64,000 nt of DNA, from contig JBDLIE010000005.1 of assembly GCA_039715015.1 (NCBI GenBank), forward strand, positions 5,575-69,574. Reading direction: 5' to 3'. Made by a program: the position numbers and the translations under genes. Of the stretch, positions 38,721 to 57,121 are shown piece after piece (the first letter of the stretch is position 1; each line of letters opens with the position of its first letter). The DNA comes from Thermodesulfobacteriota bacterium (GTDB lineage Bacteria > Desulfobacterota > Desulfobulbia > Desulfobulbales > SURF-16). The notes beneath the pieces are model-generated. The model worked only from the letters and a program-made list of their open reading frames with translations. It searched no databases and was not told where the DNA came from.

Positions 38721-38745
38721 ATTCAATTATGGTGAAAAGGTTACT

Positions 38746-40082: not shown

Positions 40083-40097
40083 GTGACAATCTGTCCC
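40083..40097. promoter_or_regulatory. degenerate GYGAC-N5-GYCAC box (GTGACAATCTGTCCC)
   Basis: Lies 5 nt upstream of the perfect palindrome in the same divergent promoter region. Confidence 0.4.
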
Positions 40098-40098
40098 T

Positions 40099-40119
40099 AG
40101 TGTGACAAATTGTCACACT
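40099..40119. promoter_or_regulatory. 21-bp perfect palindrome agtgtgacaaattgtcacact (core GTGAC-AAATT-GTCAC), candidate operator
   Basis: Read directly. It is located in the divergent intergenic region between the beta-propeller gene and the ABC/TlpA/NosL operon. Confidence 0.65.
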
Positions 40120-40250
40120 GGAAGGTTCCGAAAATAAATGATTGCGAAAAATTTGCAACAAGAAAAAAGAGAAAAACCCTCCCTTTTCTTGTTTAAAGTT
40201 GATTCCTGTTAACGGGGTTATGATCAGTGGCAGGGGCTGGGAAAATAAAA

Positions 40251-40931
40251 ATGTATATCGAATGTGAAAACCTGAACAAAAAATACAAGTCTGAAGGGGC
40301 TGTTTTAACAGCAGTTGATCAAGTCAATCTTCAGGTGAACAAAGGGGAGTTCGTCGTCATCTTGGGTCATTCCGGTTCTGGAAAGACGACGCTTCTATCA
40401 TTAATTGGCGGATTAACCAAGCCCGATGGCGGCACGGTTAGAATCGACAATATTGATAATTGGCAGCAGGCTGATGATGAGCTTGCTGTGATGCGCAATA
40501 AGAAGATCGGCTTTATTTTTCAATTTGCCAGTCTTATCCCCACCCTGACTGTTCTCGAGAATATTCTTTTACCTCTTTCCTTCACAAGCGACCCGCAAGG
40601 GGACAGGCAATATGCATTGGACCTTCTGGAGAGAGTCGGCCTCAGTGGCCGGCAGGATGATCTTCCCGGCCAATTGTCAGGCGGCCAGCAACGCCGTGTC
40701 GCCATTGCCCGTTCTTTTATAAATCGCCCAGATATTATTTTAGCAGACGAACCCACAGGTGATCTGGATGAAGAGACTGAGAAAGAAATTCTTGCCATTT
40801 TTAAGGATTTTAATAAACAGGGGATCACTTTTCTTGTTGTAAGCCATAATAAAGATCTGGCTCTCAGTCAGGACAGACCGCGTATGTTAACCATGAAAAA
40901 CGGCTCTTTAGCTGAGACTTCTTCTCCATGA
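40251..40931 (+). CDS. ABC transporter ATP-binding protein (MacB/LolD-like)
   Basis: Walker A GHSGSGKTT, signature LSGGQQRRVAIAR, Walker B ILADEPTGDLD. An alternative GTG lies at 40227. Confidence 0.9.
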   Translation: MYIECENLNKKYKSEGAVLTAVDQVNLQVNKGEFVVILGHSGSGKTTLLSLIGGLTKPDGGTVRIDNIDNWQQADDELAVMRNKKIGFIFQFASLIPTLTVLENILLPLSFTSDPQGDRQYALDLLERVGLSGRQDDLPGQLSGGQQRRVAIARSFINRPDIILADEPTGDLDEETEKEILAIFKDFNKQGITFLVVSHNKDLALSQDRPRMLTMKNGSLAETSSP

Positions 40932-41422
40932 AAAAACTTTTTTTATTGTGCACCCTGTTGCTATGTTTAGCCGCTTGCGGGCAGTCCCAACAGGCTCCAG
41001 AGCTGCAGGTCGGTGGACCAGCTCCTGGATTTTCCGGCCTTGATATTTCAGGTAATTCCTTTGACCTGGCTGATTTTTCTGGAAAGCCGGTTATTATTCG
41101 TTTTTGGTCAACTGAGTGTAATTACTGCCGGGCAGACACCCCTGTTTTTAATAAGTTGTACGCGAAATATCACGACAAGGGCCTACAAATTGCTTATATT
41201 AATACATTGTCAAGTTTGCCCCAGGTTAAAGAGTTTGTTGCTGATCTTGCTATTACATTCCCTGTCCTCATGGACGAGGATGGAACCATGGCGCGTAGCT
41301 ACCAGGTGAAGCTTGTTCCCCAAACAATAATTATCGATAAAAAACACAACATTGCTGCTGCTATTCTTGGCGGTGTCAGTGAAAAGGAAGTTATGGATTT
41401 GCTTCAGGAGGATTTGAAATAA
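40928..41422 (+). CDS. TlpA/ResA-like periplasmic thioredoxin-fold lipoprotein
   Basis: Lipobox LLCLAAC and the redox motif WSTECNYC (CxxC). Confidence 0.8.
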   Translation: MKKLFLLCTLLLCLAACGQSQQAPELQVGGPAPGFSGLDISGNSFDLADFSGKPVIIRFWSTECNYCRADTPVFNKLYAKYHDKGLQIAYINTLSSLPQVKEFVADLAITFPVLMDEDGTMARSYQVKLVPQTIIIDKKHNIAAAILGGVSEKEVMDLLQEDLK

Positions 41423-41423
41423 A

Positions 41424-41927
41424 ATGAGAACTTTGAAAAACATCTTTGTGGTCCTGTGTCTTGCTTTCTTGGCCTCTTCTGCTGTTGCCGTTGCCGAACC
41501 ATTAGAAAATATTGCCGATGATAGCCGTTGCAATGTCTGTGGTATGTTTGTTGCCAAGTATCCCAATTGGCTCACCCAGGTTCATAGAGCCGATGGACAG
41601 GTTTCCCTTTTTGACGGGGTCAAGGATATGATGGTCTTTTATTTCAACCCAGAGAAATATGGTGCCAAGGCAGACACTTTAAAGGATATTTGGGTAAAAG
41701 ATTATTACACCATGAATTGGCTTGATGGCCGTAAAGCCCTCTACGTTGTTGGTAGTGATGTTCATGGCCCCATGGGCCACGAATTCATCCCCTTTGCCAG
41801 TCATGAAGCAGCGGCATCTTTCTTAAAAGATCATTCTGGTAAAGCCATCCTTGCCTTTGATGATATTACCTCTGAAAAGGTGGAATCCATGCGCATGGGT
41901 ATGAAGATGAAAATGAAGATGAAATAG
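41424..41927 (+). CDS. nosL: NosL-family copper-chaperone-like protein with Met-rich tail
   Basis: The CNVCGMFVAKYPNW signature of the NosL family, a signal peptide, and the C-terminal tail MRMGMKMKMKMK. Confidence 0.75.
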   Translation: MRTLKNIFVVLCLAFLASSAVAVAEPLENIADDSRCNVCGMFVAKYPNWLTQVHRADGQVSLFDGVKDMMVFYFNPEKYGAKADTLKDIWVKDYYTMNWLDGRKALYVVGSDVHGPMGHEFIPFASHEAAASFLKDHSGKAILAFDDITSEKVESMRMGMKMKMKMK

Positions 41928-41953
41928 AGTGCAGCCATCATCTCCATCTTCCT

Positions 41954-42238
41954 GTGCTCTTAATGCGTCCATCCTCCCTTTTTTTCTTTGTTCTTTTCGC
42001 CCTGGCCGTTACTACTGTAACGCTAGCGGCCCATGGCCGTCATCGTGCCCTTAAGGAGAAGGACGCATATTTTGTGCGCGATAGCCTGACCAGAGAACTT
42101 GGTTTAACCGACCTATGTCTGGCCACCGAAGCTCGTTACACCAGACATCCTGCCCTGAGTGATGATCTTGCCCCTTTTATGGATTATCCAGCAGCCCTGG
42201 AGCATTTTCCCTCAGGTCTCTTCTGGGCGCCCAAATGA
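41954..42238 (+). CDS. hypothetical membrane-anchored protein
   Basis: A single N-terminal hydrophobic helix. Overlaps the next gene by 4 nt. No recognisable motif. Confidence 0.4.
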   Translation: MLLMRPSSLFFFVLFALAVTTVTLAAHGRHRALKEKDAYFVRDSLTRELGLTDLCLATEARYTRHPALSDDLAPFMDYPAALEHFPSGLFWAPK

Positions 42239-43416
42239 AAGAATTCCTTGAAAAACAGACCAATATTCTTGATTATGCCCTGGCTTCGCTCTGGCGCCGG
42301 AAGGGGAAGAATCTTAGTGTTTTTTGTGTCTTTACCCTGGTTATCTTTCTCTTAGCCTCTTTCCAGTTTTTAACACGATCTCTGTTGGTGTCTGCTGCTG
42401 ATACTTTGCAGCAGACACCCGAAATCACCGTCCAACGCATGGTTGCCGGTCGTCAGGAAACAATCCCTGTTGCCTATGGTGAAAAGATTAAAGCAATCTT
42501 CGGGGTGACTAGGGTCAGTGAAAGAGTGTGGGGCTATAAATTTAACGAAGTAACCGGCGCCAACCTTACTGTGATGGCTCTTGCCGACTTTTCCAAAGAC
42601 AATCAGGCTGCTCTTGCTGAGGGGCGTTTTTTGGTTCAGGGAGATGCTGGCCAGGCCCTTATTGGTCAAGGGGTTTTAAAAGATCTGGGTTTGGGGAAAC
42701 GGCGCAGCTTTTCTTTTTTTAGACCAGATCTCACCCTGAAATCGTTTTCAGTCAGCGGTATTTTTGCTCCTGCAACCGATATACTGACCTATGATTTGGT
42801 TGTCATGAATATCGGCGATGGCCGTGATCTTTTCGGACTCCAGCCTGATGTGGCCACTGATCTTCTTGTCGAAGTTGGAAACCCTGTGGAGATTGATACC
42901 ATTGCTAAGAAAATCTCAACGATCTTGCCAGATACCAGAGTGGTTACCCGTCCGCAGATTTTAATGACATACCAGGCTGTTTTTAGCTGGCGTTCAGGTT
43001 TTGCTTCAGTGTGTCTGTTAACAGCTCTTGCTGCCTTTATTATCTTGGCCTGGGACAAGGCCTCCGGCATGTCGCCTGAAGAACGGCGGGAAATTTCTAT
43101 TCTGAAAATCCTTGGTTGGCAGACCCCTGATGTTTTAGCAGTTCGGTTCTGGGAAAGTTTTGCCATGGCACTGGTTGCCTTTGTCTCTGGTAATATTCTG
43201 GCCTATATCCATATTGGTTATTTCCATGCAGCCCTTTTTCGTTCGGTGATGATGGGTTGGTCTGTGCTCCGTCCCACTCTTGATATTGTTCCGGCTGTAT
43301 ATTCTACGGACCTTTTCTTGCTCTTTTCTCTCTCCGTGCTTCCTTATTTGGCAGCCACGGTAATCCCTGCCTGGCGCTGTGCCTCAGTTGCCACTGATTC
43401 TGCGCTGAGGGGGTAA
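42235..43416 (+). CDS. ABC transporter permease, FtsX/MacB type (second copy)
   Basis: Same architecture as 37476-38666. C-terminal REISILKILGWQTPDV FtsX region. Confidence 0.8.
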   Translation: MKEFLEKQTNILDYALASLWRRKGKNLSVFCVFTLVIFLLASFQFLTRSLLVSAADTLQQTPEITVQRMVAGRQETIPVAYGEKIKAIFGVTRVSERVWGYKFNEVTGANLTVMALADFSKDNQAALAEGRFLVQGDAGQALIGQGVLKDLGLGKRRSFSFFRPDLTLKSFSVSGIFAPATDILTYDLVVMNIGDGRDLFGLQPDVATDLLVEVGNPVEIDTIAKKISTILPDTRVVTRPQILMTYQAVFSWRSGFASVCLLTALAAFIILAWDKASGMSPEERREISILKILGWQTPDVLAVRFWESFAMALVAFVSGNILAYIHIGYFHAALFRSVMMGWSVLRPTLDIVPAVYSTDLFLLFSLSVLPYLAATVIPAWRCASVATDSALRG

Positions 43417-43420
43417 GTTC

Positions 43421-44104
43421 ATGATTGTTGAGCTCGAGGATATTGTTAAGATTTATAACCAGGGTGAGGCTAATGAAGTAACGGCCCTTGAGCAGGTTGA
43501 TCTCACCATTGAGCATGGCTCCATGGTCTGTCTCAAGGGGCCCAGTGGCTCGGGGAAATCGACACTGCTTTCCATTATTGGCTGTATTTATCCGCCTACC
43601 AGCGGCAGGGCCGTTATAGGCGGCAAGCAGTTGTCACGTCTGCCAGATCGTTTTTTGACCATCCACCGCCGGCAGACCATCGGCTTTATCTTTCAACAAT
43701 TCAATATTTTGCCGAAGCTTTCTGTTTTTGAGAATATTGTTCTGCCTCTTCTGCCTTTGGGGGTCTCTCCTGCAAAGCGAAGAGCCATGGCTGAACCTCT
43801 GCTTGAACGTTTTGCCATTAAGCATCGTCAGAATTTTCCTGCCGGCTCTATTTCTGGCGGTGAACTGCAAAGAGTCGCAATTGCCAGGGCCTTAATTAAT
43901 AATCCGCCTATCATCATTGCCGATGAACCCACAGCACATCTTGATAGCAACCTTACCAGGGGTTTTCTGCAAACAATGATGGAGCTGAAGGAGGAGGGGA
44001 AAACCATCATTATTGCCTCCCACGACCCGCTTGTCACCGAAGATGCCAGAGTGGACAAGATGTTTAATGTTCTGGATGGCAGGGTGAGCCAGGATGTTTC
44101 TTAA
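43421..44104 (+). CDS. ABC transporter ATP-binding protein (second copy)
   Basis: GPSGSGKST, ISGGELQRVAIAR, IIADEPTAHLD. Confidence 0.9.
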   Translation: MIVELEDIVKIYNQGEANEVTALEQVDLTIEHGSMVCLKGPSGSGKSTLLSIIGCIYPPTSGRAVIGGKQLSRLPDRFLTIHRRQTIGFIFQQFNILPKLSVFENIVLPLLPLGVSPAKRRAMAEPLLERFAIKHRQNFPAGSISGGELQRVAIARALINNPPIIIADEPTAHLDSNLTRGFLQTMMELKEEGKTIIIASHDPLVTEDARVDKMFNVLDGRVSQDVS

Positions 44105-45104
44105 CCCATGGAGTCTAGCCCTGTGTCTGCTTAGCGGACTCAGTATCTTTTTGATTGGGGTGGCCTGTAAAACGGCGATCAGGGTCATCCGCCAGTGGAA
44201 CCCGGCCGCTGATAGCCAACAACAGATTGAGCTTGAATCGGAGATTTGGCTGTCATCCACCCTGGTCCAGTATGGGCTTGGCTTTCAGATTATTTCCATG
44301 TTTCTCTACGTTCTGGCTGCAGATTCTTTTGCCCAGATGCTTTCCGGGGCCATGTGTGCCACCGGGTCTCTGCTGGCCAACGATTATGGCATTCCGCTTC
44401 TTGTTGTCAAAATTGCCGGCATGTTCCTGTACGGCTTGTGGATTGTTCTTCATCAGCTCGATATCAGCAGTGAGGAGTATCCTTTAGTACGGGTTAAATA
44501 TGTCCTCCTTCTTTTTTTGCTGCCGCTGCTTGTCAGTGACACAGTCCTGTTGATTCTCTACCTGGCTGGATTGGAACCAGATATCATTACATCGTGCTGT
44601 GCAATTATTTTTGATGAAGGGGCCGGGGGCACGGTTCAGAATCTTTTCGGTGGACGGGGAGGGGAGGGGAGTTTGGCCTTTTATTACGGCTGGGCGATGC
44701 TTCTTTTCTGTCTTGGTTTTCTTGCCTGGTGGTGGCAGAAATTGGCCGCTTATCTTATCTACGGGATTGGTGTTGCCTTTTTTGGTGTTCTGGCACTGGA
44801 GACTCTCATCACTGTATTTTCATCGTATATATACGCCATGCCCTTCCATAATTGCCCTTTTTGCATACTGAAGAAAGAGTATGGATATATTGGTTTTTTT
44901 ATCTACATCCCCCTCTTTGTTGCTGTTTTCTGTGGCATCACTCCCATGCTTCTTGAGCCGTGTAAAAGAAAGAGTTCCATTGCCAGTACAGTAGCAACCA
45001 TGCAGAAAAAACTTGTGGTTGTCTCCCTGGCCTCTCTGGCATTTTATGTCACCCTCTCGTCCTATCATTATCTTGCCTATACCCTGTTGGGAGGGGAGGG
45101 GTAG
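44094..45104 (+). CDS. polytopic membrane protein with CC and CPFC motifs, unknown function
   Basis: About 8 or more hydrophobic segments. IITSCCAIIFDEG and PFHNCPFCILK. Overlaps the ATPase stop. Confidence 0.55.
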   Translation: MFLNPWSLALCLLSGLSIFLIGVACKTAIRVIRQWNPAADSQQQIELESEIWLSSTLVQYGLGFQIISMFLYVLAADSFAQMLSGAMCATGSLLANDYGIPLLVVKIAGMFLYGLWIVLHQLDISSEEYPLVRVKYVLLLFLLPLLVSDTVLLILYLAGLEPDIITSCCAIIFDEGAGGTVQNLFGGRGGEGSLAFYYGWAMLLFCLGFLAWWWQKLAAYLIYGIGVAFFGVLALETLITVFSSYIYAMPFHNCPFCILKKEYGYIGFFIYIPLFVAVFCGITPMLLEPCKRKSSIASTVATMQKKLVVVSLASLAFYVTLSSYHYLAYTLLGGEG

Positions 45105-45156
45105 GCGAGGCTAAAGGGCTGGCTGTAAAGACGATGAGTACTTGGGGTACCAAGTA

Positions 45157-45684
45157 TCAGAGGGTGGGGGGGAATTTTTGGAGTTTGCGCTGCAGGGTGC
45201 GGCGATGAATACCCAGCTTCTTAGCGGCCTGTGAAATATTATTGTTGCAGTCGCTTAAAACACGGCTGATATGCTCCCACTCAACCCGGGCAAGGGATGG
45301 AGCACTGATGCTGTCATCTTCCATTTCACGGAGATCTTCCGATTCAAAGGCAGCTATAATATCTTCAACTTCAGCAGGTTTGGTGAGATAGCCGATTGCT
45401 CCAAGCTTAATCGCCTTGGTGGCTGTGGCAATGGAGCCATAACCCGTCAAAACTACGGCTCGTAGATCGGGGTGGTGCCGCATGCCAGTCCGGATGACGT
45501 CAAGTCCTGACTTCCCTTCCATCTTGAGATCCACAACGGCAAAGGCGGGCTTGTGTCGCGCAATGATCTCCACAGCCCCGATGTAGTTACTCGCAGTCTC
45601 TACGTCGAAGCCACGGCGCTCTAGGGCCTTGGATAAACGGTTCCGGAAAATATCCTCGTCATCAACAAGTAAAATGGTCGGCAT
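45157..45684 (-). CDS. regA: RegA/ActR/PrrA-type response regulator (REC plus Fis-type HTH, no AAA+ domain)
   Basis: REC (ILLVDDE...AVVDLKMEGKSG...K). The C-terminal ISQAAKKLGIHRRTLQRKLQK closely resembles the conserved RegA HTH (..RRLNMHRRTLQRIL..). Confidence 0.8.
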   Translation of the reverse strand: MPTILLVDDEDIFRNRLSKALERRGFDVETASNYIGAVEIIARHKPAFAVVDLKMEGKSGLDVIRTGMRHHPDLRAVVLTGYGSIATATKAIKLGAIGYLTKPAEVEDIIAAFESEDLREMEDDSISAPSLARVEWEHISRVLSDCNNNISQAAKKLGIHRRTLQRKLQKFPPTL

Positions 45685-45689
45685 GGTTC

Positions 45690-47045: not shown

Positions 47046-47177
47046 TTGGTGTTGATTTAATAATTAATAGAAAAAATGCTCTTAATTAAAACACGTTAGC
47101 ATATCAATTTTATGGCTGCTAGGTATTTGAAAAAAGGCTTTGGCATAGCTTGGTGAAAAGGGAAAAAACAGGCCTAT

Positions 47178-47192
47178 GCGACAATTTGCCAC
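47178..47192. promoter_or_regulatory. GCGACAATTTGCCAC box upstream of regB
   Basis: Identical 15-mer at 57107-57121. Lies 133 nt upstream of the regB start codon. Confidence 0.6.
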
Positions 47193-47309
47193 ATTTTTCC
47201 GGTCGGCAACTTGTGTTCATGTGAATCCTTTACATATTTCTGATGAGCGAACCCAAGTAAACATTGAATATTTACCCTTTTATCCTTCTGCTTGTTATGT
47301 TGAGACACC

Positions 47310-47627
47310 TTAAACAGCATCATCGTCGATAAAACCCGCGAATATTTTTGCAAGCATGGGTTTGACATAACAACCAATGAATTCCCTGATCATCTTGTTG
47401 TTGAGCTTGACTTCATCGCCTCGCCTGAGGATGAAAAAGAGGCCAGCAGCGAAGAATTTCTGCGCATCTATTTCCGGCCTTGGTTTGGTCAATTTCGCAA
47501 CCTTGTTTGTAAAGAAGTTGAGGTTCGCGATATTAAAGCGGCTGTGGAGGGGGTAGATTTTTTCACGAGCAATGAGACTGACGCGGACTCGGACCAGGCC
47601 GCTTAAGATTAGAGCCCTAGAAGGCAT
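47310..47627 (-). CDS. orphan 105-aa ORF, possible gene remnant
   Basis: ORF only. No motif recognised. Sits in an 870-bp otherwise non-coding gap. Confidence 0.2.
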   Translation of the reverse strand: MPSRALILSGLVRVRVSLIAREKIYPLHSRFNIANLNFFTNKVAKLTKPRPEIDAQKFFAAGLFFILRRGDEVKLNNKMIREFIGCYVKPMLAKIFAGFIDDDAV

Positions 47628-47714: not shown

Positions 47715-47724
47715 CCCCCCCCCC
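47715..47724. repeat. homopolymeric C10 tract
   Basis: Read directly (atctcccccccccccttc). About 195 nt upstream of the TonB-dependent receptor start. Confidence 0.9.
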
Positions 47725-47803
47725 TTCACCTGCCGCGGGAAACACTCCCCTTTGCGGGGCGAGAATAGAAGCCCCTTCCCAGCCTGCGACACTTCACCAA
47801 TCT

Positions 47804-47818
47804 GCGACAATTCGCCAT
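47804..47818. promoter_or_regulatory. GCGACAATTCGCCAT box, preceded by weaker GCGACACTTCACCAA at 47786-47800
   Basis: Same half-site and spacing as the other boxes. About 100 nt upstream of the receptor start. Confidence 0.5.
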
Positions 47819-47917: not shown

Positions 47918-50014
47918 ATGATTCTGCGATGCAATGAACGTACTTTATTGCGCGCTGCCCTGGTTACCGGGACAGCGGCATTCTTTGTTTTGCCGCAACA
48001 GGTTTTTGCGGCTGAAGACCAGGTTGTCGAACTCAGTGACGTTGTTATCACGGCCTCCAGGATCAGTCAGCAGGTTAAGGATGCCCCGGTTGCCATCAGT
48101 ATTGTTTCCGAACAGGAACTGGACAAAATAAAGGCCAGGAATCCGCAAGAGTTTCTTTCCAGGGTCCCAGGTGTCAACTCCAGTAACTTTGGCGGTGAAT
48201 CAGAGCTTACCTCCATCAGGATACCAACCCATTTCACCAATCCATATACCGTTGTGTTGGTTGATGGCGTGCAGTATGGCAGCTATGGTTCCGGTAGCTC
48301 GAGCCAGTTTCGGGAGATTAACCTCAACAACATCGCACGTATCGAGGTGATCAAAGGGCCTGCCTCAGCTCTGTATGGCAGTAACGCCATCGGCGGTGTC
48401 ATTAACGTGATCACCAAGGAGCCTTCAGCTTTCCCCCAGGCCAGGATCTGGTCGGAACTGGGAGATTACAGGCAATGGCGGGCCGGCGTCTCCGGCAGTG
48501 GCGGATTTGATAAACTCAGCTATTTTATCGACGCCAATCACACCGATACGGAAGCTGCCCGGGAGCATAGTGGTGTTGATAAGCAGTCTGGCTCCGTGAA
48601 GTTGAACTATACCGCCACTGATGTGTCATTGCTGACCTTTAAAATAGACTATGTCACTGTCGAGAATGACTCCCCAGGCTCTATTAACCAGGATGATTTC
48701 GAAGAAGACTGGCTGCAGAGTTATCATAATTTTGCCTACAACAAGTCAGACAGGGTGGCACCTGCCCTCTCCTATGTCCATTATCTTGATGCTGCTGAGA
48801 TGCGGGCAATTTTTGTCTTACGGGACACTGAGGAGGAAACCATACCTAACTACAGCATTCGCCAGCTGACCTTTGGCCCATTTCCACGCCCCTATATTGG
48901 CAGTTATACAGAGGATGACAGTCTCGATATGAGCCTGCAGCTCTTATATAGTCACGACCTCTCCCTTTGGCGCAGCAAGGTAATTGTCGGCCTTGATACG
49001 GAGTATGGCAGCAAATATTCAAAGACCTATGACCTTTCGGTATCCTATGACAGCGCTCTCAACAAATATGAGAGCTATACCTTAGGGGACCTCGACAAGT
49101 CCTATGATATGACAACCAAGGTGGCAGCGCCATATCTGCAGCTCGAGAGTTCCCCTTGGAAAAAGCTGCGCATAACTGTCGGCGCCCGCTATGACTCGGC
49201 CCGGTATGAAGTTGAAGATCAATTGAGCAACAGCATTGAAAACAAGCGGGGGTTTGCCAAGACCAGCCCCAAAGCCGGTGTTACCTATGATATTAATGCC
49301 AACCTCAACACCTATGTCAGTTACTCAAAGGGCTTTGTTGTGCCCACCACTAGTCAGCTGTGGACCTCGCGCTATGACAACGCCGATCTGGATCCTGAAA
49401 ATGCCGAAAATTATGAGGTCGGTCTGCGCAGCAGCTTTATGAACAGACGTCTTAGGCTCGACATCTCTGTTTATGATATGACTATCACAGATAAGATCGT
49501 TATCAACAACACCCCGGCGCCGAATACCCGCTACATAAATGCGGGTAAGAGCTCACAGAAAGGCATCGAGGTAATGACCTCTTACGCGCCGCTGGAAAGC
49601 GTTCAGTTGAGTGTTGCCTACACATATGCCCGCAACAAGTATGAATCTTATAGTGATCAGGGTGTCGATTATAGCGGCAACTGGCAACCGCGCTCCCCTA
49701 AACATCACCTCAACGCCCGCCTGTCTGTATTCCCAGTCGACGGTGTAGAGGTCGAGCTGGAAATGGATGAGGTCAGCAGCCAGTTTGCTGACGACGCCAA
49801 CCTTTTTGAGTACACCAGGCCTACCCTTTTTAACCTCCGCGCCTCATACTACTGGAAGCGCTTCACTTTCTGGGGCCATATCCTGAATCTTACCGATAAG
49901 GAGCATGCAAACTATATGAGCTATAGTACCTCGGAAGACACCATGACCCTCTTTCCTGGTATTGCCAGAACGGCATTTGTCGGCCTTTCCTATCGGTTCG
50001 GAGGAGACAAGTAG
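47918..50014 (+). CDS. TonB-dependent outer-membrane receptor
   Basis: Signal peptide, TonB-box/plug region (VVELSDVVITASR...DAPVAISIV...RVPGV...IEVIKGPASALYGSNAIGGVINVITK), and a long beta-barrel ending ..GLSYRF.... Confidence 0.9.
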   Translation: MILRCNERTLLRAALVTGTAAFFVLPQQVFAAEDQVVELSDVVITASRISQQVKDAPVAISIVSEQELDKIKARNPQEFLSRVPGVNSSNFGGESELTSIRIPTHFTNPYTVVLVDGVQYGSYGSGSSSQFREINLNNIARIEVIKGPASALYGSNAIGGVINVITKEPSAFPQARIWSELGDYRQWRAGVSGSGGFDKLSYFIDANHTDTEAAREHSGVDKQSGSVKLNYTATDVSLLTFKIDYVTVENDSPGSINQDDFEEDWLQSYHNFAYNKSDRVAPALSYVHYLDAAEMRAIFVLRDTEEETIPNYSIRQLTFGPFPRPYIGSYTEDDSLDMSLQLLYSHDLSLWRSKVIVGLDTEYGSKYSKTYDLSVSYDSALNKYESYTLGDLDKSYDMTTKVAAPYLQLESSPWKKLRITVGARYDSARYEVEDQLSNSIENKRGFAKTSPKAGVTYDINANLNTYVSYSKGFVVPTTSQLWTSRYDNADLDPENAENYEVGLRSSFMNRRLRLDISVYDMTITDKIVINNTPAPNTRYINAGKSSQKGIEVMTSYAPLESVQLSVAYTYARNKYESYSDQGVDYSGNWQPRSPKHHLNARLSVFPVDGVEVELEMDEVSSQFADDANLFEYTRPTLFNLRASYYWKRFTFWGHILNLTDKEHANYMSYSTSEDTMTLFPGIARTAFVGLSYRFGGDK

Positions 50015-51066
50015 TGCCTTCTTTTTCAGGTGGTATACCGGGGCTTAAGGGCTCGGTCTGTTTTCTGACTTCAGTTATGCCGTTTCTTTTGCTGGGCGTT
50101 GCGACAGTGACTGAGGCGCAAGGGCTTCCCCCTTTGCGCCTCGCCCTTTCGCCCACTGCCCCTGTCGGTGAAGAATGCCTAGCGCATGGTCAAGGCGGCC
50201 CTGCCAAGGGCGGCAAGGCTGTAGATGACCGGCGGCCGGTACTTGAGTCAGAGCATAGACCACTGCCTGTCCGCACCTACCACTTCAACGCTCATCGTCG
50301 CTTGGCCGATGTAAAGGCCTATGTCCGGCATCCCGATGGCACAGTAGATGTGCCTGAACTTCGCCTGGGGGCCAATCCGCAACTTACTTTTAAAACACCC
50401 TTTGGCGATGGCCCCAATCATGGGGCACACAATGTCTATGTTGTCGAGCAGGGCGTTGAGGGAGATGTCCTGGTTGTCCGCACCGCAAAATGGATTGTCA
50501 TGCACCATAGCTGCGGTTGGGGACATGATCAAAAATTTAATGAGCAGCTCACCCAACCTCAACCTCTTGAGTCCATTCCCATGGAAATTCTGATCTCAGA
50601 CCTTTGGGACGGCAATTTCCACTTCCGGGTGACCACAGGTCAAAAACTTTCAATAACAGTGCTGCGGAATGGTCACCCCCTTGCCAAAGCCCGGGTAAGC
50701 GTGAGGAGTGAGCAAGGCTGGGTCAAAGAGGTAGATGCAGATAAAGATGGTGTCGCCACCTTTCAGCTGATCAGGGATTATTACCCCACCAGATGGCAGG
50801 AGTTTCACCGCACCCGGCGGGGCGAGTTTTTGGCCACGGCAACCTACGAGGCAGAGGAGCACGGCGAATATAAAGGGATACCGTATGGGCGTGTGCGCTA
50901 TATCACAACCCACCCCTGGACCTATGGCCCTTCAAGCTGGGACTATGCCTCCTATTCGATGGGTTTGCTGATCGCCGTCATTGCCATGGCCCTTACCGGT
51001 GGCGGTGTATTTATCTATCGTGAACGGCGCAAAAAGCCTTATCAGGAGATTGTTTTTGAAGAGTAA
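50014..51066 (+). CDS. DUF4198-like periplasmic protein with C-terminal membrane anchor
   Basis: The transthyretin-like segment GQKLSITVLRNGHPLAKARVSVRSEQGWVKEVDADKDGVATFQL is typical of DUF4198/NikK-like proteins. C-terminal TM MGLLIAVIAMALTGGGVFIY. An alternative ATG lies at 50077. Confidence 0.5.
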   Translation: MPSFSGGIPGLKGSVCFLTSVMPFLLLGVATVTEAQGLPPLRLALSPTAPVGEECLAHGQGGPAKGGKAVDDRRPVLESEHRPLPVRTYHFNAHRRLADVKAYVRHPDGTVDVPELRLGANPQLTFKTPFGDGPNHGAHNVYVVEQGVEGDVLVVRTAKWIVMHHSCGWGHDQKFNEQLTQPQPLESIPMEILISDLWDGNFHFRVTTGQKLSITVLRNGHPLAKARVSVRSEQGWVKEVDADKDGVATFQLIRDYYPTRWQEFHRTRRGEFLATATYEAEEHGEYKGIPYGRVRYITTHPWTYGPSSWDYASYSMGLLIAVIAMALTGGGVFIYRERRKKPYQEIVFEE

Positions 51067-52045
51067 ACTGCAGACCGCCATCAATAACTGTAATGTCAGC
51101 CGCTTTCGGTTTTACGTGCAGATCTTCAGCTTTGCACTCCTCGTTTATGGTGGATACCTGGCCATAAATATTGGCGACCAGTTGCCAACCTTTGCGTGTG
51201 TGTTCGATCAAATGAGGGGAGGGGCCTGCTACCTCATGGGCCTGCAGCATCAGATGACCACCCCCTTCAAGAGCTATTTCAGCGGCCGGGGCATTGGTAT
51301 GCTGACTGGGCTGCTGACTTTTTTTCTCTTTTTTATCGCCCTCAACAAGGCCTGGTGCGGTTTTGTTTGCCCCCTTGGCACCCTTCAGGACTGGCTGAGC
51401 AGCCTGCGCCGTAAATTCGGGATCCGGTACGCAACGTACTCGGCACAGAATTTCAAGGGCCTCGGTACCATCAAGTATATCCTGCTGGCCCTGTTGATTC
51501 TTCTCCCCATGGCCATAGGCAACAGCTTTTTCGGCCTGCCCAAGCTCAATCATGATTTTGGCGTGCCGTTCTGCATGATTTGTCCGGGGAGAACCCTGCT
51601 CCCGGTTTTTCATGGTGATTTTTCGCAGTTCATCATCGATTTCAGTTCAAAGACCAAGATGGTCTTCACGGCCCTGGGTATGGCGGTGACAGGTATGTTA
51701 TTGGCCGGCGCCTTTGCGAAGAAGCGGTTCTTCTGCCTCTTTTGCCCGATGAGCGCCTTTCACTATATCTTCCACAAGGCAGGCTTGCTGCGCCTTACCA
51801 AGGATGGCAGCAAGTGCACCCGTTGCGGAAACTGTTACCGGGCCTGTGATGTTGGTATCCATGCCATCGCCGATGACTTGACCCATAAAAATATTATCAA
51901 GGATGATTGCATGATGTGCCTGAAATGCATTGAAGCATGCCCGGAGGAAGATTGCCTGAAGGCTTCTTTTTTTGCAATGCCGGTTTATGAGTCAAGCGCC
52001 CAAGGGTTTTTTAAAAGGATGCAGGGGAAATGTCATGGAAAATGA
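51056..52045 (+). CDS. NapH/MauN-like membrane polyferredoxin
   Basis: Three membrane-proximal CxxCP motifs (CGFVCPLG, FCMICPGR, CLFCPMS) plus two ferredoxin motifs (CTRCGNCYRACD, CMMCLKCIEACP). The start is uncertain: the ORF is open from 50981, and TTG 51056 avoids overlap. Confidence 0.75.
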   Translation: MKSKLQTAINNCNVSRFRFYVQIFSFALLVYGGYLAINIGDQLPTFACVFDQMRGGACYLMGLQHQMTTPFKSYFSGRGIGMLTGLLTFFLFFIALNKAWCGFVCPLGTLQDWLSSLRRKFGIRYATYSAQNFKGLGTIKYILLALLILLPMAIGNSFFGLPKLNHDFGVPFCMICPGRTLLPVFHGDFSQFIIDFSSKTKMVFTALGMAVTGMLLAGAFAKKRFFCLFCPMSAFHYIFHKAGLLRLTKDGSKCTRCGNCYRACDVGIHAIADDLTHKNIIKDDCMMCLKCIEACPEEDCLKASFFAMPVYESSAQGFFKRMQGKCHGK

Positions 52046-53348
52046 ACGACTAAGGCGAGTGCGGAAGACGACCCTTCTTCATTTGGCCATGGAGGCCAAG
52101 AACACCCTGCTGAAGATAGAAGAAGAGTTTCCCGATAACCCGGCGGCAATGGACTACTTCTACACGCTCTATAAGGATGTATTCAACGACGAGCCGAAGC
52201 TGCCCACCGATAAGAAAATTATCGGGACGATGTGCGTCCAGGTCCCCCAAGAGCTTATACATGCTGTTGGGGCATTCCCCTTACGGTTATGCAATGGGGC
52301 TAGTGCCTATGATCAGGTAGGTGCCGAGTTTATGCCTGCCAAGTCCTGCCCTGTGGTGCGGGCGACAATGGGCATGCTTCATGTCGACCAGGCGCTGTGG
52401 GGGGAATCCCTGCAGGCCGTCGTCATCCCTACCACCTGCGACCAAAAGAAAAAATCATGCCAGATTCTTGCCGATATGGGCTACCCAGTCTATGCCCTGG
52501 ACATGCCAGCGACCAAGGAGAGCGAGGCCTCTCGTTTTTATTGGCAGGAGTCGATAAAAAAATTCACCCTGGATATGCAAAAAATAACCGGGGTGAAAAT
52601 AACTGCAAAGCGTGTCCAGGCAGCCATAGCAAAAGTAGCCTCAGCATCATCCCTGTACCGGAAGTTGCAGGAATTGCGAAAATCTGATTATGCCCTGATT
52701 CTTGGCAAGGATATGTTTTTGGTCACCAATGCCTATTTTTTTGATGAAATTGATCGCTGGCAGCAGTCTGTCAGCCGGCTGGTCGCCGAATTGGAAGAAC
52801 GTAAACGAAACGGCTTTAGCGCCGGCAAGCGCCAGGCCCCACGCATCCTTTTTACCGGTTCGCCACCAATATTTCCCAACCTCAAGGTTCCCATTCTGGT
52901 GGAACAGGCCGGCGGGGTTATCGTGGCAGATGAAACCTGCTCGTCGGGAAGACTTCTCTATGATTCCGTTGCCTTTGATGAAGCAACTCTCAACGACATG
53001 ATTCCCGCTCTTGCCGACCGCTCCCTGAAGCCCTGCACCTGCCCATGTCTCACCCCAAACAAGGACCGGCTGCGGAAGCTCATTAACATGGCCAAAGAAT
53101 TTGAGGCCGATGGCGTTGTCTATCAGGCTTTTTCTGGTTGCCTCCCCTATGAAATGGAGCAGAAGCAGGTTGCCAAGGCCCTGGCCGAAGCCGAAGTGCC
53201 GATGCTATATGTTGAAACCGACTATAGCCCTGAAGATATGGGGCAGCTTTCCACACGGATAGAGGCCTTTATCGAATCGATCCTGGCCCGGAGAAGAAAA
53301 AAGAAGGTTGCCCAGCTTCATCAGAAGGCAGGTGAGGAAGGCTCGTGA
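52035..53348 (+). CDS. 2-hydroxyacyl-CoA dehydratase / BcrC-BadD / double-cubane-cluster-protein family FeS protein
   Basis: Family-typical C-terminus YSPEDMGQLSTRIEAFIESI, with dispersed conserved-looking Cys (KSCPVV, TTCDQKKKSC, DETCSSG, PCTCPC, FSGCLPY). The next gene is the matching activase. Confidence 0.7.
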   Translation: MENERLRRVRKTTLLHLAMEAKNTLLKIEEEFPDNPAAMDYFYTLYKDVFNDEPKLPTDKKIIGTMCVQVPQELIHAVGAFPLRLCNGASAYDQVGAEFMPAKSCPVVRATMGMLHVDQALWGESLQAVVIPTTCDQKKKSCQILADMGYPVYALDMPATKESEASRFYWQESIKKFTLDMQKITGVKITAKRVQAAIAKVASASSLYRKLQELRKSDYALILGKDMFLVTNAYFFDEIDRWQQSVSRLVAELEERKRNGFSAGKRQAPRILFTGSPPIFPNLKVPILVEQAGGVIVADETCSSGRLLYDSVAFDEATLNDMIPALADRSLKPCTCPCLTPNKDRLRKLINMAKEFEADGVVYQAFSGCLPYEMEQKQVAKALAEAEVPMLYVETDYSPEDMGQLSTRIEAFIESILARRRKKKVAQLHQKAGEEGS

Positions 53349-54160
53349 ACTACTTTGCAGGTATTGATATCGGTTCGACCTCGATAAAGATTGTTCTGGC
53401 CGACGACAATGAACAGATTGTTGCCTCAGATGTCTGTCCGACTGGCAGTTTTTTTCATAAAAATACCATGACTGCCTTTGCTGGTTTATTGACCCAAAAA
53501 AATATCGATCGCCAGGAGGTGGTCTATATCATTTCCACCGGCTATGGCCGTAAGCTTTTCAAAGAGTCCGACGAGACTATCAGCGAGATCACTGCCAATG
53601 CCATTGGCGCCCGTAAAATCGGTGAGCGCTATGGCCAGACACGGACAATCATCAATATTGGCGGCCAGGACTTGAAGGTAATTCTTCTTGATGACGAGGG
53701 CCATGTTAAAAACTTTGCCATGAACGACAAGTGTGCGGCTGGTACCGGCCGCTTTCTGGAGATGACTGCCCGCAACCTGGAGGTTGAGGTTGATGAGCTT
53801 GGTGACTTTCATGAAAGGTGCGCCACTATTCCGTTAATCATTAACAGCACCTGTACTGTGTTTGCCGAGTCTGAGATTATCAGCCTGCTCGCCAACGGTC
53901 ATGGCAAAGAAGAACTCATTACCGGCATTCACTATTCCGTTGCCAGAAGGGTAGCGCGTCTGGCAAAACGCCATGGCGTAGAGGACATGGTCTTCTTTGA
54001 TGGCGGGCCTGCCTTAAATCAGGGTCTTGTTAAGGCCCTGGAGGATGAGTTGATGCACCGGGTTGTTGTCCCCGACACTCCACAGATTACCACCGCCTAT
54101 GGTGCTGCCTTGTTGGCCAGGGACGCCTATCTCTGTGAAGACGAGGTGGTTAATGGCTGA
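53345..54160 (+). CDS. BcrA/BadF/HgdC-type ATPase activase (CoA-substrate-specific enzyme activase family)
   Basis: Acetate/sugar-kinase fold N-terminus GIDIGSTSIKIVL and NDKCAAGTGRFLE (bridging-cluster Cys region). 271 aa. Confidence 0.8.
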   Translation: MNYFAGIDIGSTSIKIVLADDNEQIVASDVCPTGSFFHKNTMTAFAGLLTQKNIDRQEVVYIISTGYGRKLFKESDETISEITANAIGARKIGERYGQTRTIINIGGQDLKVILLDDEGHVKNFAMNDKCAAGTGRFLEMTARNLEVEVDELGDFHERCATIPLIINSTCTVFAESEIISLLANGHGKEELITGIHYSVARRVARLAKRHGVEDMVFFDGGPALNQGLVKALEDELMHRVVVPDTPQITTAYGAALLARDAYLCEDEVVNG

Positions 54161-54758
54161 ACTCTTCAGCTTTCTCGGCCTCGGTGTACTGTACGGCTGC
54201 ACCATGTGTAGCTTTACCTGCCTGCCATACCTGGGCATCTATCTCATGGGTACTGGCCAGGGTTTTGGCGACGGGGTGCGGGCATCGTTTTTTTTTCTGC
54301 TGGGAAAGGTTTGCACCTATACCTTGTTCGGGGCCTTGGCCGGGGCCTTGGGGATGGTCCTTGATTTGAGCGCCACCCAGGGCAAGGTATTGGGCCTTGT
54401 CTTGATAACGACCGGTATTTTCTTGCCCTTTGTGGCCAGGAAGCAATGCCAGGGGACTTGCCGGCAATCAGGGAAAAGACTCTCTCTCTTTTCCCTGGGC
54501 ATGGCCACCAGTCTGTTACCATGCCCGCCCTTGGCTGCGGTTTTTCTTGTGGCTGCCCAAAAAGGCTCCTGGCTCCTGGGGGCAGGATACGGAGCGCTGT
54601 TCGGTCTGGGCCTTTTTGTGTCGCCGCTCCTGCTGGCTGGAGGAGGGCTGGCCCATATAACAAAGACAATCCAGTTTGAAGCAAAGGGATTCACCCCCTA
54701 CCTGCAGGGTATTTCCATGTTGATAATAGTAGTGATTGGTCTGCGAGTTTTTATCTAA
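54153..54758 (+). CDS. DsbD_2/CcdA-like polytopic membrane protein
   Basis: Six hydrophobic segments. Cys-rich first helix GCTMCSFTCLPYLG and LLPCPPL later. The assignment is tentative. Confidence 0.4.
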   Translation: MAELFSFLGLGVLYGCTMCSFTCLPYLGIYLMGTGQGFGDGVRASFFFLLGKVCTYTLFGALAGALGMVLDLSATQGKVLGLVLITTGIFLPFVARKQCQGTCRQSGKRLSLFSLGMATSLLPCPPLAAVFLVAAQKGSWLLGAGYGALFGLGLFVSPLLLAGGGLAHITKTIQFEAKGFTPYLQGISMLIIVVIGLRVFI

Positions 54759-54764
54759 GGGGGA

Positions 54765-55199
54765 ATGGCTATGGAATGGCTTAAGGATGTCATTGATTAT
54801 GGAATAATTGGTTTCTTGCTGGTGATGAGTGTGGTTGCATGCGCCATCGCCATAGAAAGGTTCTTGGTTTTTCGTTCTATCAGGCTTGACGACTACCCCA
54901 ACAAGCAGCTCTTGCAGATTGAGCTCACCAAAAAGCTGCATGTCATTGCGATCATCGGCAGCAATGCCCCCTATTTGGGTCTGCTTGGCACGGTCCTCGG
55001 TATTATGCTGACCTTCTATAATCTGGGCCGGGAAGGCTTTATGGATACCAGCGAGATAATGGTGGGTTTGGCCTTGGCCCTGAAGGTAACAGCTGTTGGC
55101 TTGGTCGTGGCGATTCCGGCCGTTTTTCTTTATAATATGCTGCTGCGCCAGGCAAAGGTGCTGATGTTGCAATGGGAGAGTACCCATGGACGAGACTGA
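54765..55199 (+). CDS. exbB: ExbB (MotA/TolQ/ExbB family)
   Basis: IGSNAPYLGLLGTVLGIM and ALKVTAVGLVVAIPAVFLYN. Confidence 0.85.
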   Translation: MAMEWLKDVIDYGIIGFLLVMSVVACAIAIERFLVFRSIRLDDYPNKQLLQIELTKKLHVIAIIGSNAPYLGLLGTVLGIMLTFYNLGREGFMDTSEIMVGLALALKVTAVGLVVAIPAVFLYNMLLRQAKVLMLQWESTHGRD

Positions 55200-55566
55200 G
55201 TTCAATACCTTGAATGTGATCCCCCTCGTCGATGTGATGCTGGTCTTGCTGACCATTGTTTTGATGACATCGACTTTTATTGCGGTGGGCGGACTTTCCA
55301 TTGAATTGCCGCAAGCCGCCGGGGAAAAAGTGGAAATGTTAAAGACGCTGACCATCGAAATAGATAGTGAGGGCACCATATTTCTTGAGGCCGCGGCAAT
55401 ATCACTTGCCGGGTTGACTGATTCCTTGGCCGGAACCGATAAGGAGACACCCCTAATCATCCGGGCCGACAAGAAATTGGCCTTACAACATTTTGTTGAG
55501 GTGATGAGTGCGGCAAAGGCTTTGGGTTTCACCAAGGTAAGCCTGCAAACCGAGGTGACCTCATGA
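55186..55566 (+). CDS. exbD: ExbD
   Basis: LNVIPLVDVMLVLLTIVLM signature. 126 aa. Confidence 0.85.
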   Translation: MDETEFNTLNVIPLVDVMLVLLTIVLMTSTFIAVGGLSIELPQAAGEKVEMLKTLTIEIDSEGTIFLEAAAISLAGLTDSLAGTDKETPLIIRADKKLALQHFVEVMSAAKALGFTKVSLQTEVTS

Positions 55567-56297
55567 ATTATCAAGGCTGGGGCTTAGGAATATCCATGAT
55601 GCTCCATGGCCTTTTGGCCTGGGGGCTGTTGAGCACAATTACCACTTCCACCCTGAATCCCTTGGACGGCAAGAGCCGGATAAGCCTTGATTTCTGCCTG
55701 CTGCCTCTCCAGGCGGTGGTGCTGGCACAAAGCTCACCATCTCCGCCCCAACCTAGGAAGGTGGTGAAAAAAAAACCAGCCACGCCTGTCAAGGTGCGGG
55801 AGATAGCCAAACCTGAAGCCAGCAAGAAAAAAACTGTCGTTGCCGAAAAACAACCCGATCCGGCCCAGGTTGCCCCGGCACTGGCTGAAGAACGGCTGGT
55901 TGCCAAACAGGAAGTTGGAGCTGAAGATTTGCCGCCAGCCGGCTTTAGCGAGGCTGGGCCGGGCACGGCTGACGAGGCTGCCACCGTTCCGCAGGCTTCT
56001 CTGCAAGCCGCCAAACGGCAGCAGTATGTTGATACCTATTTTTCTGATATCTGCCAAAAGATACAGCAAAACATGCGTTATCCCAAACTAGCCCGCCGTA
56101 TGGGCCTGGAAGGGAAGGTTGTGGTCTCATTTATGGTTCATAAAGATGGCAATATTGATGATGTGCGTATAGTGCAAAGCTCCGGGGTGAGAATTCTTGA
56201 TAAAAACGCCATTGATACCATAAAAAATACGGCCCCCTTTCCGAAGCCGCCGATCACTGCCGAGTTGATTGTGCCGATCAAATACGGTTTGGTCTGA
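55563..56297 (+). CDS. tonB: TonB energy transducer
   Basis: N-terminal anchor, Pro/Lys-rich spacer (PSPPQPRKVVKKKPATPVKV), and C-terminal TonB domain (YPKLARRMGLEGKVVVSFMVHKDGNI..VRIVQSSG..LD). Confidence 0.85.
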   Translation: MNYQGWGLGISMMLHGLLAWGLLSTITTSTLNPLDGKSRISLDFCLLPLQAVVLAQSSPSPPQPRKVVKKKPATPVKVREIAKPEASKKKTVVAEKQPDPAQVAPALAEERLVAKQEVGAEDLPPAGFSEAGPGTADEAATVPQASLQAAKRQQYVDTYFSDICQKIQQNMRYPKLARRMGLEGKVVVSFMVHKDGNIDDVRIVQSSGVRILDKNAIDTIKNTAPFPKPPITAELIVPIKYGLV

Positions 56298-56684
56298 AAC
56301 CGTTGATCCTTGCAGGTCTTCTTGCCTGTAATCCCATGGCAGGTAATGTAACTGCCTGCTGTTAATGGCTTTTTCCAAGACTCTCATTTCATCGACTTAG
56401 ATACAAATCCAAAGACCTGGCAGGTATCGGCTAGGTGCTTGGATTTTGTGGTACTTGAGCGAGAATCAAACTCGAACGGGCGCAATGTCAAACCGCTTTG
56501 AAAATTAACCTCTCAACCGCGTCCAATTTTGCCCCCTTATTTTAAACAAAAGAGATCATTTTCTGTTTTTCAACCTCCAATTCTCCCTTGTGAAGAGTGT
56601 CATTGCAGGGCCAATCAGCAACCGGTTCTTTACGGAGCGTCAGGGGCTCAGTCGGGGTGATTCTTGCCAAGGCGGTTGGCTCCT

Positions 56685-56979
56685 ACTCTCTGGCAATGGT
56701 GCGGTGTCACTCGCTTAAGGATTGCTGAATGTGCGAGACGAAAAAGGTCGTTAAAATTGCACTTATGGCAGAAGCAAGCTCCATACCCTATAGATGAAGG
56801 TCCATATTCAAGGTAGTAATAGTGCAAACCTGCTGGAAAAGAAATGAACCGATCTTGATCGTAAGAATTTGGCTGGCCACGGCCCACCAACGTAATTTTA
56901 GCAGCCACAAGAGACCAATTCGCTTGGTGTTATGAGTATTTTGCTAAGGATTCAGTCTGCTTAGAAAAGTGGGATCCAT
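56685..56979 (-). pseudogene. decayed, internally deleted copy of the regB-type kinase 5' region
   Basis: The minus strand translates to MDPTFLSRLNP*QNTHNTKRIGLLWLLKLRWWAVASQILTIKIGSFLF-QQVCTITTLNMDLHL*GMELASAISAILTTFFVSHIQQSLSE*HRTIA. The intact kinase reads ...RSIGLNWLVKLRWWAVAGQILTIAIGSFFF...QQVCNITNFNMDLHLQGMWFAYAVSAVLITFFASRIQQSLRDYHRTIA. The copy has three in-frame stops and lacks about 340 bp (46567-46905 equivalent). Confidence 0.8.
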
Positions 56980-57106
56980 TGTGTTTGGTTGAGGTGGAAG
57001 GGAAGGTGTCGACTGAATCAAAATCAGCACATCAACCTCAAGCCCGCCAACCACCTAAGGGACACTTTCTCAATATCTTTTGGCCAAAAGGATCAACGAG
57101 ACTTAT

Positions 57107-57121
57107 GCGACAATTTGCCAC
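57107..57121. promoter_or_regulatory. GCGACAATTTGCCAC box upstream of the TorD/molybdoenzyme operon
   Basis: Identical to 47178-47192. It is embedded in a roughly 60-bp block (57104-57163) that is homologous to 47175-47235. Confidence 0.6.

Follow-up and report, generated by a model that had tools for sequence, protein, structure and literature searches.

The DNA examined here is a 64-kb stretch (64,000 nucleotides; hereafter the window) from a Thermodesulfobacteriota bacterium of the order Desulfobulbales. It encodes a RegB-like sensor kinase and a RegA-like response regulator, and the promoter regions around these two genes carry copies of a short inverted repeat, referred to below as the box. 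RegB/RegA is a textbook global redox regulator, and its DNA site is hard to pin down. The original prediction, made from the letters alone, had placed six boxes in the window and connected them with the resident RegB/RegA pair; all six positions match the coordinates read from the sequence. The boxes and the genes around them are collected in Table 1.

Table 1. Boxes, genes and related features of the window (PWM, position weight matrix; HTH, helix-turn-helix; ORF, open reading frame).
Feature	Position	Strand	Remarks
Leftward unit	35506-39894	-	secreted 382-aa protein, FtsX/MacB-type permease, FmdE-like protein with zinc ribbon, APH-type kinase
Degenerate neighbour box GTGACAATCTGTCCC	40083-40097	.	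PWM 14-15 bits
Main box, 21-bp perfect palindrome agtgtgacaaattgtcacact	40099-40119	.	core GTGACAAATTGTCAC at 40102-40116; PWM 24-25 bits
Rightward unit	40227-45104	+	ABC ATPase, TlpA-like redoxin, NosL, 94-aa ORF, FtsX/MacB permease, ABC ATPase, 336-aa membrane protein
regA-like response regulator, 175 aa	45157-45684	-	Pfam Response_reg (residues 4-113) and HTH_8 (131-171, Fis-type HTH)
regB-like sensor kinase, 451 aa	45690-47045	-	HisKA, HATPase_c, PilS-like domain with six transmembrane segments
Box GCGACAATTTGCCAC, regB side	47178-47192	+	133 nt from regB start 47045, oriented away from regB; 25.4 bits
torD paralogue remnant, 3' half	47307-47609	+	72% identical, ungapped, to 57595-57897
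Weak box GCGACACTTCACCAA	47786-47800	+	10.1 bits only; upstream of TonB-dependent receptor
Receptor box GCGACAATTCGCCAT	47804-47818	+	100 nt upstream of TonB-dependent receptor gene; 21 bits
Nine-gene cassette	47918-56297	+	TonB-dependent receptor, DUF4198-like, Fer4_5, HGD-D, BcrAD/BadFG ATPase, DsbD_2, ExbB, ExbD, TonB
Box GCGACAATTTGCCAC, torD side	57107-57121	+	upstream of torD; 25.4 bits; aligns with box of L001-L004
Putative extended -10, TGtTAAGGA	57143-57151	+	hexamer starts 24 nt after torD box
torD operon	57319-61022	+	torD-like chaperone, 734-aa Tat-signal molybdopterin oxidoreductase, 4Fe-4S subunit

The core of the box is a 7-3-7 inverted repeat, TGYGRCA-WWW-TGYCRCA, commonly the 17-mer TGCGACAATTTGCCACA. 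In the window the pattern GYGAC-N5-GYCAC gives four matches at three distinct sites, compared with 0.24 expected, and none of 100 shuffles gave four matches. When GYGACAAWTYGYCAY was searched with up to two mismatches, 10 matches were obtained against 2.5 expected. When the kind of scan proposed in the original prediction was run on the 64 kb, a PWM built from the sites reached 21 bits or more only at 40102, 47178, 47804, and 57107, the four strong boxes; the next-best site is the degenerate neighbour at 40083. The same matrix found no site above 15 bits in 299 kb of unrelated loci. A similar density in coding DNA genome-wide had been named in advance as evidence against the interpretation; across the window and the unrelated loci the strong sites all proved intergenic, none of them lying in coding DNA.

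Both proteins of the two-component system carry hallmarks of the RegB/RegA family. The regulator has no AAA+ domain and ends in ...GIHRRTLQRKLQKFPPTL, which includes GIHRRTLQRKL. Among solved structures, it is closest to 3RQI (E=2e-40) and, over residues 130-173, the PrrA effector domain 1UMQ, and the recognition helix HRRTLQR is common to all three (GIHRRTLQRKL versus NMHRRTLQRKL in the 3RQI alignment). The best NCBIfam match of the regulator is ActR/PrrA/RegA (NF033791), with 187.6 bits against an equivalog cutoff of 250 bits, and that of the kinase is ActS/PrrB/RegB (NF033792), with 224.7 bits against 350 bits; as both fall below these cutoffs, the two proteins are distant members of the families, not equivalogs. 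Kinases of the RegB family possess a conserved redox-active Cys downstream of the H-box (Cys265 in Rhodobacter capsulatus). In the kinase of the window, a Cys that may correspond to it lies about 40 residues after the H-box AHELSTPL, within REQTNRCKKIL, and the same position is occupied by Cys in 13 other box-linked kinases. The quinone-site motif of RegB-type kinases, defined as GGXXNPF (PMC8191878), appears as GGTMNPF in the membrane domain and is kept in 11 other box-linked kinases. The HTH with HRRTLQRKL, the GGTMNPF motif and the Cys had all been noticed in the original prediction, and all are present in the products of the two genes.

The system shares further traits with PrrB/PrrA, RegS/RegR, ActS/ActR, RoxS/RoxR, and SpdS/SpdR. 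The kinase and regulator genes are adjacent, the regulator of about 175-185 aa joins a receiver to a Fis-type HTH with the helix HRRTLQR, and the kinase has GGxxNPF, a membrane domain of several passes and, downstream of the H-box, a Cys that may be the counterpart of the redox-active one; GCGNC-type half-sites are inverted and 5 nt apart, and a site stands next to the system's own genes. It differs from these systems in its lineage, in its below-cutoff scores, and in its sites, where the promoter-proximal half is GCCAC/GTCAC instead of GTCGC/GNCGC and the spacer consists of A/T only. The associated genes are also different, namely a PhsA-like molybdenum-enzyme operon, a TonB-dependent cassette, and NosL/ABC units.

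Comparison with published operators places the box within a known type, the imperfect inverted repeat GCGNC-N5-GNCGC. One study (PMC5506826) quotes the motifs GNGRCRTTNNGNCGC for RegR, in the form given in the original prediction, YSCGGC(5)GWCRMA for PrrA, and SSGNVRDNHYSNCSS for R. capsulatus RegA, and describes the published motifs as degenerate and dissimilar despite identical HTHs. The torD/regB box departs from them at 2 of 11, 1 of 12, and 1 of 12 specified positions, respectively. The RegA homologue SpdR of Caulobacter binds CTGCGAC-N5-GTCGCAG in electrophoretic mobility shift assays (EMSA; cspD and CC0517) (PMC4830024). The box and this site disagree at 4 of 14 specified positions, chiefly outermost bases and bases of the second half-site, and the TGCGAC half-site, the 5-nt spacer and the palindromic logic are common to both, as would be the binding by a RegA homologue, seen there by EMSA. 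The claim that the boxes follow the half-site and spacing logic of RegA-family operators is borne out. Unlike the box, SpdR sites are reported to be rare in the Caulobacter genome and have no described fixed distance to a -10 element. Chromatin immunoprecipitation (ChIP) sequencing of PrrA gave no strong motif (PMC4263372), and DNA affinity purification sequencing of RoxR gave no reproducible sites (PMC8599809). The site described here is nearly invariant across lineages, whereas the alphaproteobacterial motifs are degenerate (PMC5506826) or underivable (PMC4263372, PMC8599809). In the collection of papers searched, none contains the box on either strand.

The original prediction had suggested looking for boxes at orthologous operons of related genomes, and they were found there at regB, at the palindrome, and at the receptor gene. 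Ten related loci were picked by RegB similarity alone, comprising the four closest relatives (L001-L004, RegB 70-75% identical) and six distant ones (L005-L010, 40-46%). In 10 of 10, GCGACAATTTGCCAC is identical at 15 of 15 positions and lies upstream of regB or of a nosL-regB-regA operon. The four closest relatives have regB directly divergent from torD and the molybdenum-enzyme operon with a single box between them, 142-158 nt upstream of regB. In the six distant loci, the box is on the strand of the genes and heads nosL-regB-regA, exactly 24 nt upstream of TATAAG or TATAAA. L001, L003, and L004 retain the palindrome at the corresponding position, in the form GCGACAAATTGTCAC or GCGACACTTTGTCAC, within a nearly invariant block of about 130 bp; of the neighbour at 40083, only the half-site TGTGACAATC is conserved in the relatives (invariant in four genomes). 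At orthologous cassettes, the receptor box is present in three of four, at -148 in L150, at -132 as a perfect consensus in L151, and at -112 in L153, a Desulfurivibrio alkaliphilus-type contig. The weak box at 47786 is not present in the orthologous L150 promoter, and its function is doubtful.

The leader between the box promoter and nosL in L005-L010 contains a conserved stem with compensatory changes (alignment columns ~205-250; ~9085-9130 in L006). The pairs CTCCCGG/CCGGGAG, CTGCTGG/CCGGCAG, and CTGTCGG/CCGACGG occur, and a conserved CATGCTTTYCTKCA element precedes the stem. It could be an attenuator or regulatory RNA; a search of the leader against Rfam found no family match, only a chance match to a small nucleolar RNA (E=0.71).

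The association extends to bacteria far from the Desulfobulbales. The complete genomes of two cultured zetaproteobacteria, Mariprofundus ferrinatatus (CP018800) and M. aestuarium (CP018799), were entered through RegA homology and not through the box. In both, regB-regA is followed by exbB-exbD-tonB, a receptor, a DUF4198-like gene, Fer4_5, and DsbD_2. Boxes of 20-26 bits are located 76-131 nt upstream of regB, exbB, and one TonB-receptor gene, and in front of a second receptor gene stand tandem boxes of lower score, about 14 bits. A connection between RegA and TonB-dependent uptake has also been described in Methylomonas sp. DH-1, where transcripts of a TonB receptor, the tonB operon and feo are RegA-dependent, falling to 3-23% of wild type in a regA deletion (PMC13274454). 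The box-headed receptor and TonB units of the window and of Mariprofundus resemble this case. In a gammaproteobacterial metagenome-assembled genome (L156), only a weak, GC-shifted palindrome, GCGGCAATTCGCCGC, was found just upstream of regB.

The M. ferrinatatus locus (L154) has a GC-type palindrome, GCGACAAAATGTCGC, at 7602-7616, 110 nt ahead of a PF03860 (Csp) gene that stands just before regB; the palindrome comes close to the SpdR consensus. PF03860 is the family of copper-storage proteins. Taken with the NosL and DUF1775 genes that follow boxes, the Csp gene hints, speculatively, at a copper theme. Papers on copper and TonB-dependent transporters (PMC13038864, PMC12617631, PMC12914433) showed no link to RegBA.

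We then turned to metagenomes, scanning public contigs for exact matches of the 18-mer TGCGACAATTTGCCACAT. It was found on at least 120 contigs, and 80 of them were read; their flanks are mutually unrelated. RegB/RegA-type genes are present on 16 of these 80 box-selected contigs, compared with a rough chance-adjacency estimate of about 0.1 in 80. The box-linked kinases keep GGxxNPF and the Cys, and the regulators keep HRR(T/S)LQR. One box-linked regulator is zetaproteobacterial (L031), and another (L095), which adjoins an exact box, is nearly identical to PrrA in the effector domain (1UMQ, E=5e-28). Genes downstream of the metagenome boxes include those for TonB receptors (8 of 31), TonB, and NosL. 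In a census of 150 ORFs within 2.5 kb of a box, the most frequent families were HATPase_c (10), Response_reg (9), and the Plug (9) and barrel (8) domains of TonB receptors. HTH_8 (5) was the sole enriched DNA-binding family in this census apart from HTH_30 (4), whose matches are probably the same proteins, and GerE, Sigma54_activat and sigma-factor genes were not among the enriched families.

A set of 67 non-redundant metagenome loci was used to define the promoter geometry. Their consensus consists of TGCGACAATTTGCCACATT, a variable spacer, and TGnTAnnnT. The TAnnnT hexamer, preceded by TGn, starts 24 nt after the 15-mer in 33 of the 67 loci and 23 nt after it in 8, the GCCAC half of the box being proximal to the -10; no hexamer enrichment was observed for the opposite box orientation. 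The torD -10 of the window follows the same layout and is conserved in L001-L004 as TGtTAAGGA, TAATGA or TAAAGA. Judged by its sequence, this architecture is that of an extended -10 promoter without a -35, typical of activator-dependent promoters, and the box would be centred near -44 relative to the start deduced from the putative -10. By analogy only, it recalls class II promoters of CRP/FNR (sites near -41.5) in having a site for a dimeric regulator over the -35 region, a -35 that is weak or missing, and a constant helical phase to the -10; it differs in the protein family, in the presumed centre of about -44, and in an asymmetric site of fixed orientation.

An invariable distance and orientation with respect to a -10-like hexamer, together with the lack of a canonical -35, would also suit a box that is itself a -35-like element for an alternative sigma factor. 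We consider this very improbable. The end of the box is 23-24 nt from the -10, and about 27 nt separate the TTGCCA inside it from the hexamer, more than a -35/-10 pair allows. The box is moreover a two-fold inverted repeat, in the window a perfect palindrome, a form typical of sites for dimeric regulators and not of those for sigma factors, and the lack of enrichment of sigma-factor genes in the census points the same way. In one metagenome contig (L074), two exact 18-mers (1163-1180 and 1367-1384) lie 204 bp apart, each followed by a near-identical promoter (…AAAGATTGCTATACTT…), which looks like a tandemly duplicated RegA-type promoter unit.

The palindrome separates the operon for the secreted protein, FtsX and FmdE, which runs leftward, from the ABC, TlpA and NosL operon, which runs rightward. 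On the + strand, a conserved sigma-70-like element (TTGCCA, 17 nt, TG-extended GACAAT) overlaps the 40083 neighbour and faces the ABC/NosL operon, and promoter prediction returned a promoter-like match at 40062-40090. Two hairpins called in this region were rejected. The intrinsic terminator at 40118-40081 is a by-product of two adjacent palindromic boxes, with no minus-strand gene upstream for it to terminate and with an unconserved second arm; the arms of the hairpin at 40157-40193 are not conserved in L003 and L004.

The two identical boxes at 47178 and 57107 have a common origin. The segment 47150-47275 aligns without gaps to 57079-57204, revealing two copies of the regB/torD spacer that share an identical core of 23 bp, TATGCGACAATTTGCCACATTTT, and are 59% identical outside it. 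The regB-side copy is followed by the remnant of a torD paralogue, whose frame is open for 101 codons. Its 5' half is gone, no start codon is found near its 5' end, and the first in-frame ATG, GTG or TTG is a GTG near the 3' end. The TonB-receptor cassette was not found between regB and torD in L001-L004, and other Desulfobulbales carry the same cassette in different, unrelated neighbourhoods; in this genome it therefore lies between the two spacer copies, as an insertion relative to the close relatives. The layout looks like the outcome of a single-crossover integration, or of a tandem duplication followed by insertion. Since both boxes sit in copies of a duplicated spacer, they are not independent: the original prediction was right that they are identical, and counting them as separate occurrences does not hold.

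The duplication bears on autoregulation as well. In the copy next to regB, decay has turned the torD -10 TGtTAAGGA into TGtTCATGT, and the box is intact, which is consistent with continued use of the box, plausibly for regB. Because the 47178 box is the ancestral box shared by regB and torD and faces the decayed torD promoter, autoregulation in this genome is deduced mainly from the relatives. There, the autoregulation put forward in the original prediction is well supported, with the box heading nosL-regB-regA or standing 100-130 nt upstream of regB; for the window itself it is only plausible.

Paralogous boxes and a terminator-like call over the adjacent boxes at 40081-40118 are what would be expected if the motif were an artefact, the identical boxes arising from duplication and the rest being chance matches, repeat ends or RNA hairpins. 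This explanation is largely refuted and retains hardly any probability. With the duplicated box counted once, sites are still conserved at orthologous promoters with diverged flanks, and the 23-bp core stayed identical while its surroundings diverged. The hairpin fails for the reasons given above, and an Rfam search of 36-61.5 kb detected no known RNA family; the strong sites, in addition, never fall in coding DNA.

From these comparisons, the boxes are very probably operators for the RegA-type response regulator encoded in the window. The link between RegB/RegA and the box is supported by several mutually independent comparative lines. As distant bacteria show this box with a like promoter layout and like partner genes, the circuit can be regarded as real. 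It is of a kind already familiar, belonging, if distantly, to a known family and having a known operator type. The local RegB/RegA regulon put forward in the original prediction is backed by the conservation of orthologous promoters, by Mariprofundus, by the metagenome linkage, and by the likeness to established operators. The four promoter regions, heading five transcription units, are best explained as such a regulon, and the attribute redox-controlled would apply to it by family membership only.

Several observations weigh against this assignment. The NCBIfam matches of both proteins are nearly of full model length, yet they stay below the equivalog cutoffs. No box was found upstream of the orthologous cassette in L152, which comes from a Desulforhopalus metagenome-assembled genome, and in the receptor promoter of the window the spacing is 26 nt, versus 23-24 nt in L150, L151, and L153. 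The palindrome fits the -44 geometry for neither of the divergent genes. In Methylomonas, ChIP detected RegA only at feo and not at the TonB-receptor or tonB promoters; the authors of that study regard RegA control of the receptor and tonB as indirect, and no motif was reported (PMC13274454). Moreover, in L005, L006, L008, L009, and L010 the box is directly preceded by an NtrC-type two-component system, and in L007 the 3' end of such a system is visible upstream of the box. Finally, linkage of the box to regBA would also be expected if regBA were merely a common target of another regulator.

The last two points lead to a different explanation, in which the box is bound by some other factor, be it encoded elsewhere, the NtrC-type neighbour or the NarL-type regulator at 33712-34365, and regBA is one of its usual targets. 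Adjacency alone cannot separate "binds" from "regulated by", and a NarL/GerE regulator does reside in the window, 6 kb away. Nevertheless, we consider such a factor unlikely. No NtrC-type orthologue was found in the window, L001, L003, or L004, and the box promoters have an extended -10 at fixed spacing and no GG-N10-GC sigma-54 element. On its reverse strand the box reads GG-N9-GC, and the palindrome lacks the GG; a sigma-54 promoter or NtrC enhancer was accordingly discarded for wrong spacing and for want of an NtrC-type orthologue in those four loci. HTH_8 is enriched near the box, unlike GerE and Sigma54_activat, and the half-site and 5-nt spacer agree with EMSA-defined sites of RegA-family proteins. 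In the distant Desulfobulbales loci, the NtrC-type pair and RegB/RegA may be functionally coupled.

With RegA as the preferred binder, a mechanism can be proposed in which we infer the binding, the sign of regulation and the redox signal from sequence. The membrane kinase RegB, with its quinone-site motif and conserved Cys, would adjust the phosphorylation of RegA to the redox state of the membrane, and a RegA dimer would then bind the box. Since the box lies at a fixed distance from a TG-extended -10 with no -35, RegA would most likely act as a class-II-type activator at torD and at most of the related promoters. At the palindrome, where the box is just downstream of the conserved sigma-70-like promoter facing the ABC/NosL operon, it may instead repress. 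The local regulon would comprise the torD/molybdenum-oxidoreductase operon, the TonB-dependent cassette, one or both of the divergent units at the palindrome, and probably regBA.

Beyond the original prediction, the comparisons reveal a near-invariant site across lineages, a fixed promoter geometry, and a recurrent partnership of regBA with the TonB-dependent cassette and NosL. The window alone would amount to a sound regulon annotation and not to a new kind of system. The layout built on the 17-mer was seen in Desulfobulbales, in Zetaproteobacteria, and on contigs with a near-PrrA regulator, and we tentatively raise the possibility, which we hold to be somewhat less probable than its opposite, that TGCGACAATTTGCCACA placed 23-24 nt upstream of a TG-extended -10 defines a class of RegA-dependent promoters across distant bacterial lineages. 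If so, the core regulon would consist of regBA, the TonB-dependent cassette (receptor, DUF4198-like, Fer4_5, DsbD_2, ExbBD, TonB), and NosL-type proteins, and the optimum site of RegA would be sharp and not "degenerate". A basal task of RegB/RegA would then be to couple the redox state of the membrane to envelope metal uptake, possibly of copper or iron, for respiratory enzymes. Because the sites are information-rich, shared across lineages and fixed in geometry, sequence scans could predict regulons in uncultured bacteria, such as those of the sulfur cycle or iron oxidisers. The tie of RegB/RegA to the TonB-dependent cassette and NosL-type proteins offers a testable lead on targets outside phototrophs.

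The transcription units headed by the boxes are themselves conserved to different extents. Gene order of the rightward unit is kept in L001-L004 and that of the leftward unit in L003 and L004, and L001-L004 also contain an operon orthologous to the torD operon. The best NCBIfam match of the molybdopterin oxidoreductase is PhsA, below cutoff. The first gene to the left of the palindrome (38746-39894, - strand) encodes the secreted 382-aa protein, labelled a beta-propeller in the original prediction; searches of Pfam, NCBIfam and PDB sequences returned no match for it. Its C-terminal CLACH motif fits CXXCH, so the protein could bind haem c.

A second signalling cluster at 32570-35504 encodes a hybrid kinase (receiver and HATPase_c), the NarL/GerE-type regulator (33712-34365), and a PAS-GGDEF protein; no box was found near it. 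At 47715-47724, some 80 nt ahead of the receptor box, there is a run of 10 C, perhaps a tract prone to slippage, perhaps an artefact of assembly. Within the TonB-dependent cassette of the Desulfobulbales (51972-54160 in the window, and L150-L153), the 2-hydroxyacyl-CoA-dehydratase-like D-component HGD-D is accompanied by a BcrAD/BadFG-type activating ATPase, a pairing that is odd for an uptake operon; the Mariprofundus cassettes lack both.

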